32,000 nt of DNA from the NCBI RefSeq assembly GCF_000018105.1, contig NC_009925.1, positions 270,001-302,000 of the forward strand, read 5' to 3'. The DNA comes from Acaryochloris marina MBIC11017. GTDB taxonomy: Bacteria; Cyanobacteriota; Cyanobacteriia; Thermosynechococcales; Thermosynechococcaceae. The position numbers and the translations under genes are program-made. Below are positions 22,083-22,504 of the stretch, one piece after another (positions within the stretch are counted from its first letter, which is position 1; each line of letters begins with the position of its first letter). The notes under the pieces were generated by a model. The model did not search any database and had not been told where the DNA came from. It saw nothing but the letters and a program-made list of their open reading frames with translations.

Positions 22083-22156
22083 ACTCCTGTGGCGCAATTG
22101 GCAGACGCAACTGTCTTAAACACAGTTTGTTGTGGGTTCGACTCCCACCAGGAGTA
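22083..22156 (+). tRNA. tRNA-Leu(TAA) lacking the long variable arm (class-I-like)
   Basis: Acceptor ACTCCTG/CAGGAGT. Leu-type D arm TG-GCG-CAATTGGCAGA-CGC. Anticodon arm ACTGT-CTTAAAC-ACAGT. The variable loop is only TTGTT. T arm GTGGG-TTCGACT-CCCAC. Discriminator A. No intron. Confidence 0.7.
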
Positions 22157-22237
22157 TAGGAGTTTAGAGTTCAGAATTGAGGTACTTCCTAAAGAGGAGC
22201 TTCACTGACAGAGTTACATCTTGAAAGTCGCTTTTTT

Positions 22238-22311
22238 ACTCCTGTAGCCCAATGGGAAGAGGCGCTGGTTTCAAACTCCAGAGGTTGTGGGTTCGACTCC
22301 CACCAGGAGTA
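22238..22311 (+). tRNA. tRNA-Leu(CAA) lacking the long variable arm
   Basis: Same acceptor and T arm as 22083. D arm GCC-CAATGGGAAGA-GGC. Anticodon stem CTGG(T)/(T)CCAG and loop TTCAAAC. 5-nt variable loop. Discriminator A. Confidence 0.65.
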
Positions 22312-22348
22312 CTGGATTCAACTAAAAAAACTCCGAACTCTTTTATTC

Positions 22349-22422
22349 ACTCCTGTAGCCCAACTGGAAGAGGCGCTGGTCTTAGAAACCAGAGGTTGTG
22401 GGTTCGACTCCCACCAGGAGTA
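22349..22422 (+). tRNA. tRNA-Leu(TAG) lacking the long variable arm
   Basis: Near-identical to 22238 outside the anticodon arm CTGGT-CTTAGAA-ACCAG. 5-nt variable loop. Discriminator A. Confidence 0.7.
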
Positions 22423-22426
22423 TTGT

Positions 22427-22504
22427 GCTCCCGTGGCGAAATTGGCAAACGCCTCTGTTTGAGAGACAGAGTTTTTACAGGTTCAACTCCTGTCGGGAGT
22501 ACCA
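22427..22504 (+). tRNA. tRNA-Leu(GAG) lacking the long variable arm, CCA encoded
   Basis: Acceptor GCTCCCG/CGGGAGT. Leu-type D arm TG-GCG-AAATTGGCAAA-CGC. Anticodon arm TCTGT-TTGAGAG-ACAGA. 6-nt variable loop. T arm ACAGG-TTCAACT-CCTGT. Discriminator A, then CCA (22502-04). Confidence 0.7.

Follow-up and report, generated by a model that had tools for sequence, protein, structure and literature searches.

Four adjacent tRNA-Leu genes without a long variable arm were investigated in a stretch of 32,000 nucleotides of Acaryochloris marina MBIC11017 (NC_009925.1, positions 270,001 to 302,000), which is called the window here and to which all coordinates refer unless stated otherwise. Judged from their sequences, the genes probably encode functional tRNAs that are charged by the host's leucyl-tRNA synthetase (LeuRS) and belong to a stress-inducible mobile tRNA array. 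An ordinary host LeuRS, reading neither the anticodon nor the long arm, would charge all four, as the genes keep the features recognised by bacterial LeuRS and lack the arm only. In translation, UAA and CAA would read UUR, and UAG and GAG would read CUN. Together they would thus decode all six leucine codons, as the initial annotation had deduced from the four anticodons. The locus is an ordinary member of two described kinds, the bacterial type I tRNA-Leu and the cyanobacterial long tRNA array (L-array). The four genes are:

22083 to 22156, plus strand: tRNA-Leu(UAA), type I; Rfam RF00005 60.1 bits; ARAGORN (taa) 22082 to 22157; variable loop TTGTT, 5 nt
22238 to 22311, plus strand: tRNA-Leu(CAA), type I; Rfam RF00005 59.7 bits; ARAGORN (caa) 22238 to 22312; variable loop AGGTT, 5 nt
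22349 to 22422, plus strand: tRNA-Leu(UAG), type I; Rfam RF00005 64.5 bits; ARAGORN (tag) 22349 to 22422; variable loop AGGTT, 5 nt
22427 to 22504, plus strand: tRNA-Leu(GAG), type I; Rfam RF00005 51.9 bits (22427 to 22501); ARAGORN (gag) 22427 to 22504; variable loop GTTTTT, 6 nt

All four genes score above the RF00005 gathering score of 29, with E-values of 1e-8 to 5e-12, and thus belong to the tRNA family. ARAGORN draws a cloverleaf for each of them. According to this cloverleaf and a position-by-position parse, each gene is composed of a 7-bp acceptor stem, T8, a 3-bp D stem, a D loop region of 11 nt, a 5-bp anticodon stem, a 7-nt anticodon loop, a 5-bp T stem, a T loop TTCRANT and A73. 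Class II tRNA-Leu is characterized by a stem-loop variable arm of at least 10 nt, whereas the variable loops measured here have 5, 5, 5 and 6 nt. The 5 nt of the Streptomyces coelicolor type are found in UAA, CAA and UAG; GAG has 6 nt. No hidden long arm could be fitted by re-alignment of the four genes with ARAGORN, Rfam or the segment parse. Hence, the short variable loops of 5–6 nt and the A73 discriminators described in the initial annotation were found again in all four genes. For comparison, the variable arms of the long-armed tRNA-Leu in our comparison set have 10–25 nt, and long arms are retained by two other members of this array, tRNA-Ser with 88 nt and tRNA-Tyr with 85 nt.

The acceptor stems of UAA, CAA and UAG are identical (ACTCCTG/CAGGAGT), as are their T arms (GTGGGTTCGACTCCCAC), so that the top half agrees to 100% in these three genes. 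The D arm is TGGCGCAATTGGCAGACGC in the UAA gene and TGGCGAAATTGGCAAACGC in the GAG gene, both with the pattern TGGCG-AATTGGCA-ACGC, and TAGCCCAATGGGAAGAGGC in the CAA gene. Both the three shared acceptor and T arms and the two D arms of the bacterial tRNA-Leu type had been recognized before and could be verified. The UAA gene in particular has a D arm resembling that of long-armed bacterial tRNA-Leu. The first pair is A1-U72 in UAA, CAA and UAG and G1.U72 in GAG. In the UAA gene, U(-1) could pair with A73. CCA is encoded in the GAG gene and in none of the other three. The CUN-reading genes UAG and GAG have A37 and not G37; in the mobile comparison set A37 occurs in 81% of the armless and 77% of the long-armed tRNA-Leu. 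The CUN-reading tRNA-Leu of E. coli carry m1G37. On this basis, the UAG and GAG tRNAs would not depend on TrmD.

The E. coli LeuRS needs A73, A14, A15-U48, G18G19, A20a and the tertiary features of the elbow formed by D and T loop (PMC9976931). The long arm and the anticodon are dispensable for this enzyme, which also charges variants devoid of both arms, the long one and that of the anticodon (PMC9976931). All four genes of the window possess T8, A14, A15, U48, A73 and an unpaired position 13:22. The GG lies four nucleotides into the D loop in UAA, UAG and GAG; in CAA the sequence is AATGGG and either register is possible. Thus, the leucine identity features of the E. coli type (A73; A14, A15-U48, the G18G19 register and the 3-bp D stem) are present in the set.

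Charging of such tRNAs by a bacterial LeuRS is known from S. coelicolor. This organism has one type I tRNA-Leu(CAA) with a variable loop of 5 nt, which is leucylated by its own single LeuRS and by the human mitochondrial LeuRS (Fan et al. 2019, PMC6614811). The A. marina genes resemble this tRNA in their bacterial origin and, in three of the four, in the 5-nt loop; in Streptomyces the short form coexists with long-armed tRNA-Leu and a single LeuRS. The cases differ in that S. coelicolor has one essential housekeeping isoacceptor, whereas four supernumerary ones are present in a mobile and probably inducible cyanobacterial array. Furthermore, charging was shown for S. coelicolor and is predicted for the A. 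marina set, and A73 was reported not to be a determinant in S. coelicolor (PMC6614811). Animal mitochondrial tRNA-Leu is likewise armless, and its identity lies mainly in A73 and A14. In contrast to the genes of the window with their fully canonical elbow, it is organellar, structurally relaxed and served by a dedicated LeuRS. The S. coelicolor LeuRS does not charge human mitochondrial tRNA-Leu(UUR) (PMC6614811).

Further evidence comes from the trn operon of Anabaena PCC 7120. In this operon 23 of 26 tRNAs were aminoacylated in vivo, three gave no signal, and the operonic tRNAs tested were found in polysomes (PMC8421152). The operon contains four tRNA-Leu genes of 75–78 nt, all of them armless. 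As only three genes were without signal, at least one armless tRNA-Leu must be charged in vivo in Anabaena. By analogy, the A. marina tRNAs may also be used by ribosomes. Armless tRNA-Leu in L-arrays is not mentioned in the main texts of PMC8421152, of the TrcR paper (PMC10272220) and of Tran et al. 2016; it may be noted in the supplements of PMC8421152 or by Puerto-Galan & Vioque 2012.

The initial annotation had regarded the armless tRNA-Leu as exceptional. This premise was too strong, since the same type was detected in cyanobacterial arrays, in arrays of other phyla, in many phages and on many actinobacterial chromosomes. Each of the 18 tRNA-Leu genes in seven cyanobacterial arrays is short (74–78 nt), and tRNA-Ser and tRNA-Tyr have 83–92 nt. 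For a wider search a degenerate 54-nt pattern reaching from T8 to the T loop was derived from the array and phage genes, which required a leucine anticodon and a variable loop of 5 nt and for which about 17 chance matches were estimated in the genome collection. At least 120 loci in viral contigs and at least 120 loci in bacterial genomes were obtained. Loci selected in this way show breadth and not frequency, and the ratios of short to long tRNA-Leu within them are biased.

With ARAGORN, two settings were found at the genome loci. In the first, single armless genes (UAA, CAA, UAG or CAG) lie on large chromosomal contigs of many genera of Actinomycetota, among them Nocardioides, Gordonia, Nocardia, Amycolatopsis, Pseudonocardia, Rhodococcus, Mycobacterium, Corynebacterium and Bifidobacterium. 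Such single genes, mostly UAA or CAA, were observed in dozens of actinobacterial genera (loci L138–L257). In the second setting, arrays of 10–35 tRNAs contain up to five armless leucine isoacceptors each; outside the cyanobacteria they occur in Acidobacteriota, Planctomycetota, Elusimicrobia, Bacteroidota, Pseudomonadota, Lachnospiraceae and Actinomycetota. The 2019 study on Streptomyces called its armless tRNA-Leu rare (PMC6614811). The first setting points to a general trait of Actinomycetota, of which S. coelicolor is one case, and not to a rarity of Streptomyces; none of the genome matches listed from the pattern scan belongs to Streptomyces itself. A paper of 2024 implies a long loop for only three of the five tRNA-Leu of M. 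tuberculosis, which agrees with the pattern matches in Actinomycetota genomes.

A blastn search of phage genomes with the UAA gene yielded 67 records. About 50 of the 60 matches listed are annotated as tRNA-Leu and two as tRNA-Trp, the others being unannotated, and among these matches each alignment crosses the variable region without a break. The hosts of the phages are Mycobacterium, Streptomyces, Gordonia, Myxococcus, Erwinia, Salmonella, Citrobacter, Aeromonas and Acinetobacter. The tRNA-Leu of Myxococcus phage Mx1, Gordonia phage Phendrix, Mycobacterium phage Rey, Erwinia phage phiEa21-4 and Acinetobacter phage Acibel004 share with the array genes a length of 74–78 nt, A73 and the 3-bp D stem. 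They also have in common with them the loop AAYTGGCARA, the 5-nt variable loop ending in U48 and often the T arm GTGGG-TTCGAAT-CCCAC. Unlike the array set, phages usually carry one or two isoacceptors, located in the phage genome, and not all of them are armless: Phendrix has one tRNA-Leu of 82 nt and phage T5 a long-armed one of 85 nt. For this reason T5, considered as an example of an E. coli phage with armless tRNA-Leu, was dropped.

The cloverleaf of the armless tRNA-Leu appears to be under selection across these groups. A gapless alignment was made from 62 equally long armless tRNA-Leu of cyanobacteria, phages and other phyla. Of its stem cells 98.1% are paired, and both partners have changed in 19 of 20 pairs. 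The sequences had been pre-filtered for pairing, which makes the percentage paired too high but does not affect the compensatory changes. The covariation score was 1.03; in shuffled alignments it was 0.23 (0 of 500 reached the observed value), and with slid partners at most 0.20. The leucine identity features were compared in the loci of the pattern scan for armless tRNA-Leu (n=333 distinct), long-armed tRNA-Leu (n=48) and other class I tRNAs (n=1231), in this order:

A73: 99% (332/333), 100%, 51%
A14: 99%, 97%, 88%
A15: 99%, 95%, 50%
U48: 99%, 94%, 41%
13:22 unpaired (3-bp D stem): 98%, 100%, 25%
A22: 99%, 83%, 29%
GG four nucleotides into the D loop: 87%, 68%, 32%
Three nucleotides after GG (D-loop beta region of 3 nt): 95%, 83%, 34%

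A MAFFT alignment of all tRNA cores had 213 columns and was too gappy; a parse by structural position was used instead. Because the pattern imposes part of the shared features, the count was repeated with 62 armless tRNA-Leu that do not match it. Here, A73 was found in 62/62, A14 in 62/62, A15 in 59/62, U48 in 60/62 and an unpaired 13:22 in 61/62. A73 was never part of the search pattern.

These results bear on the view that the four genes are decaying or uncharged tRNA-like sequences (pseudogenes, decoys or processing signals) which merely resemble tRNA-Leu. Such arrays do hold pseudogenes, and the three silent genes among the 26 of Anabaena as well as the dispensability of its array for recovery of protein content, i.e. 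protein synthesis, under chloramphenicol would suit this view (PMC8421152). The same applies to the missing CCA in three of the four window genes and to single stem defects, which are described below. On the other hand, the Rfam scores of 52–64 bits are high, the stems are intact with compensatory changes across phyla, and A73 and the tertiary determinants are nearly invariant. The short form is kept in all related arrays, and the window retains the full set of four anticodons. Many cyanobacterial tRNA genes have no encoded CCA, which also counts against decay. Taken together, we consider decay of the set highly unlikely.

Among the three options offered by the initial annotation, the sequence data favour a LeuRS that charges class-I-shaped tRNA-Leu; for a switched identity and for decoys no positive support was obtained. 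The preference is based on the retained LeuRS determinants, on the S. coelicolor precedent and on the aminoacylation of the Anabaena operonic tRNAs in vivo.

Several points weigh against leucylation of all four tRNAs. The type I tRNA-Leu(CAA) of S. coelicolor was rejected by the E. coli LeuRS and by a second LeuRS from Streptomyces (PMC6614811). Hence, not every bacterial LeuRS accepts armless tRNA-Leu. The acid gels used for Anabaena revealed that an amino acid was attached, but not its kind (PMC8421152). The CAA gene of the window has a U31.U39 mismatch in its anticodon stem, and in the GAG gene of PCC 7120 the T stem is broken; some array members evidently decay. In this orthologue (locus L001, 4375–4452, delta plasmid) the T-stem strand ACTCT faces CCTGT, whereas the A. 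marina copy is intact; the orthologue may be one of the three Anabaena genes without signal. Finally, an isotype test gave mixed assignments. It was a home-made naive-Bayes classifier with the anticodon masked and the variable loop removed, and its leave-one-out accuracy was 78%. The best classes were:

UAA: long-armed tRNA-Leu
CAA: actinobacterial stand-alone armless tRNA-Leu
UAG: actinobacterial stand-alone armless tRNA-Leu
GAG: 'Arg' by a small margin, with long-armed tRNA-Leu as close second

Without the actinobacterial class, long-armed tRNA-Leu ranked 8th for CAA and 5th for UAG. Addition of this class placed CAA and UAG among the leucine classes, and GAG was still ambiguous. Two subtypes became apparent, one with G9 and a GCG or ACG D stem, the other with A9 and a GCC D stem. 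For leucine identity the outcome appears supportive but not decisive.

The assignment of GAG and some of its orthologues nearest to 'Arg' could be taken as a hint of an identity switch. In this case another synthetase would charge the tRNAs, and an active array would cause leucine codons to be translated into some other amino acid, a form of regulated mistranslation. In Anabaena the operonic Phe and Ile tRNAs migrate aberrantly in acid gels; misacylation was discussed by the authors, and no mistranslation was found (PMC8421152). However, the 'Arg' class of our test is a heterogeneous catch-all with a self-recognition of only 63%, and A73, the A15-U48 pair and the D-loop register of tRNA-Leu are leucine determinants. 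ArgRS needs C35, PheRS G34, SerRS the long arm and AlaRS G3.U70. All of these are absent from the four window genes. Synthetases that read the anticodon would reject NAG and YAA. We therefore regard an identity switch as extremely improbable, and charging with leucine by LeuRS remains the preferred explanation.

The four genes are part of a tRNA array. ARAGORN found 25 tRNA genes, all on the plus strand, between 20953 and 29812. Of these, 21 were confirmed by RF00005 at gathering score, and Rfam added two weak ones. The array, its promoter and the gene upstream are located as follows:

18736 to 19254, plus strand: HNH endonuclease gene upstream of the array (PF01844, 6.7e-15)
20837 to 20877, plus strand: array promoter with TrcR-type operator repeats; TTGACA (20849 to 20854), 17 nt, TAGTAT (20872 to 20877)
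20953 to 22584, plus strand: first array block, 17 tRNA genes in 1.63 kb; Asp, Glu, Cys, Trp, Glu, Tyr, Ser, Arg, Phe, Asn, Gln, Gln, four Leu, Pro
23109 to 29812, plus strand: rest of the array, broken by protein genes; Lys, Met, Thr, Gly, Val, Ile(UAU)-like, Arg, weak Ala-like and His-like hits, an odd tRNA with an 8-nt anticodon loop

Cyanobacterial long tRNA arrays are described to spread horizontally, to have an HNH endonuclease gene upstream and to contain embedded genes for RNA processing (PMC8421152, PMC10272220). For A. marina MBIC11017 an array has already been listed in the L-array literature. In blastn the first block was 73–79% identical to plasmid tRNA arrays of Nostoc, Tolypothrix, Calothrix and Kovacikia, including the delta plasmid of Nostoc/Anabaena PCC 7120, and its gene order is largely that of the PCC 7120 trn operon. 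Thus, the locus combines a long, dense and homologous array on one strand with an HNH gene upstream and operator-like repeats over the -10 box. The HNH gene is a conserved neighbour, as it is also found upstream in the cyanobacterial arrays L001–L005.

The protein genes between the tRNA blocks, on the plus strand, code for an RNA ligase with a fused tRNA-binding domain (PF09414 + PF01588; 24350–25651), a Macro domain protein (26509–27024) and endonuclease V (30736–31416). They fit the published enrichment of RNA-processing neighbours at cyanobacterial tRNA arrays. The same set recurs in unchanged order in several other assemblies, and a protein encoded inside the array has an exact match in AP026075.1, the chromosome of A. 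marina MBIC10699 (6.4 Mb, 72 tRNA genes). The flanks of the array look chromosomal, with PriA, histidine kinases and WecG.

Like the trn operon of PCC 7120, the A. marina locus has a related gene order, the HNH gene upstream, embedded RNA-processing genes, TGTAGTAT over the -10 box TAGTAT and four armless tRNA-Leu. In contrast to the operon on the delta plasmid, the array is chromosomal and split by protein genes. The order of the leucine genes is UAA-CAA-UAG-GAG-Pro in A. marina and CAA-Pro-UAG-GAG-Lys-UAA in Anabaena. Identical acceptor and T halves in three leucine genes are found in the A. marina array, unlike in the Anabaena trn operon.

The Anabaena operon is induced under translational impairment and is repressed by TrcR via repeats over the -10 box (PMC8421152, PMC10272220). 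At the array promoter, exact copies of TGTAGTAT lie at 20837, 20859 and 20870. A distance of 3 nt separates the second from the third, and the third includes the -10 box. This promoter architecture matches that of the Anabaena trn operon, and binding of TrcR and induction can be predicted for A. marina. The array would probably be silent in normal growth, with a TrcR-type repressor bound at the TGTAGTAT repeats over the -10 box, and would be induced under impaired translation as in Anabaena. Allowing one mismatch, TGTAGTAT was found 15 times in the window, with 15.2 expected by chance. As this count equals chance, the motif was dropped as a window-wide signal; it is meaningful only as the cluster of exact copies at the promoter. 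A further exact copy is situated inside the array between the Tyr and Ser genes (21490–21497, plus strand), a tandem pair on the minus strand at 28678–28696 and an inverted pair, each copy of which has one mismatch, at 18412–18429, upstream of the HNH gene. These additional sites may be further regulated promoters.

The setting in a mobile array raises the question of whether the loss of the arm was adaptive and not neutral. Mobile tRNA-Leu sets might thereby escape toxins, nucleases or quality control that recognise the class II long arm, and provide a backup resistant to damage in phage-host conflict or translational stress. The concentration of armless tRNA-Leu in phages and mobile arrays would suit such a role, as would the arrays with whole sets of up to five armless isoacceptors and the RNA-repair-type genes inside the array (RNA ligase with tRNA-binding domain, Macro domain protein, endonuclease V). 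However, tRNA-Ser and tRNA-Tyr of the same arrays stay long-armed, phage T5 carries a long-armed tRNA-Leu, and no toxin that targets tRNA-Leu via its arm was identified here. Moreover, the armless tRNA-Leu is an ordinary single chromosomal gene in many Actinomycetota, where no story of evasion is needed. Adaptive loss is thus a rather unlikely explanation. It is equally doubtful that the absence of the arm was selected for immunity to arm-recognising toxins, nucleases, nucleotidyltransferases or stress-triggered decay, so that the array would keep the six leucine codons decoded while the resident long-armed pool is attacked.

Regarding the origin of the four genes, GAG is 87% identical to the GAG gene of PCC 7120 and is its orthologue. 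UAG is the orthologue of the Kovacikia UAG gene, with 93% identity overall and 97% in the lower half. The initial annotation had explained the three genes with identical acceptor and T arms by duplication followed by a change of the anticodon. For the pair CAA and UAG this could be maintained: within the window they are 91% identical overall and 87% in the lower half, and the lower half of CAA is 85–87% identical to UAG genes but 74–78% to CAA genes of other arrays. Being nearer to UAG genes, it fits a UAG duplicate with changed anticodon. For UAA the explanation did not hold, as this gene shares the acceptor/T half only. This half is 100% identical to that of CAA and UAG, whereas the D and anticodon arms resemble UAA and UAG genes of other arrays. 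UAA heads the leucine block in A. marina and follows Lys in Anabaena. The gene looks like a chimera, which partial gene conversion or recombination among paralogues would explain better than a simple duplication.

For the locus itself the result is mostly a clarification; the locus is not exceptional, and it is the breadth of the armless type that may be under-appreciated. In mobile tRNA arrays, tRNA-Leu usually appears to be armless. The type is also common in phages and seems a routine chromosomal gene in many Actinomycetota, and in arrays, phages and Actinomycetota alike the LeuRS determinants are kept. These tRNAs are a natural material to ask what the long arm of tRNA-Leu does, and could serve as compact scaffolds for engineering. 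The class may be mis-scored by annotation based on isotypes. The E. coli LeuRS rejects the Streptomyces version, yet phages of Erwinia, Salmonella and Citrobacter carry armless tRNA-Leu, which raises the question of how both fit together.

Some other members of the array are unusual. An Ile(UAU)-like gene of 90 nt (27328–27417, plus strand) was called by ARAGORN and was not reported by Rfam at gathering score. In the ARAGORN call its extra arm is long, its D arm is short and CCA is encoded. Similar Ile(UAU) calls of 89–93 nt recur in arrays of Acidobacteriota (L151, L171, L175). Thus, this array member appears to carry an arm while Leu has lost its own. The two weak tRNA hits of Rfam (27502–27598 and 27605–27678, plus strand, 32 bits), which ARAGORN did not call, have anticodon loops with TGC (Ala) and GTG (His), respectively, and their positions match Ala and His of other arrays. 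The Ala-like hit, 97 nt long with an insertion, may be decayed. A tRNA-like gene at 29739–29812 (plus strand; Rfam 38.3 bits) has a 4-base anticodon (tgta) and hence an 8-nt anticodon loop. It could be a decayed or a frameshift-suppressor-like tRNA.

Directly after tRNA-Pro, at the end of the first block, a perfect 13-nt inverted repeat was found (22590–22602 and 22624–22636, ccctaactgatcg and cgatcagttaggg). This repeat may function as a terminator or a processing hairpin, or represent a small mobile element. A small open reading frame (19313–19696, plus strand), situated between HNH gene and array, is assigned to Pfam PF28246 'Alr0857' in the precomputed genome annotation; this family is named after an Anabaena gene with a locus tag near trcR (all0854). 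Two further regions of the window are unrelated to tRNA-Leu. Phage-tail-like genes at 87–3464 (plus strand) comprise one sheath gene and three tube genes of the T4 gp19 type, resembling a contractile injection system, and at 7211–9577 (plus strand) an animal-type haem peroxidase of 788 amino acids with RTX repeats is encoded.

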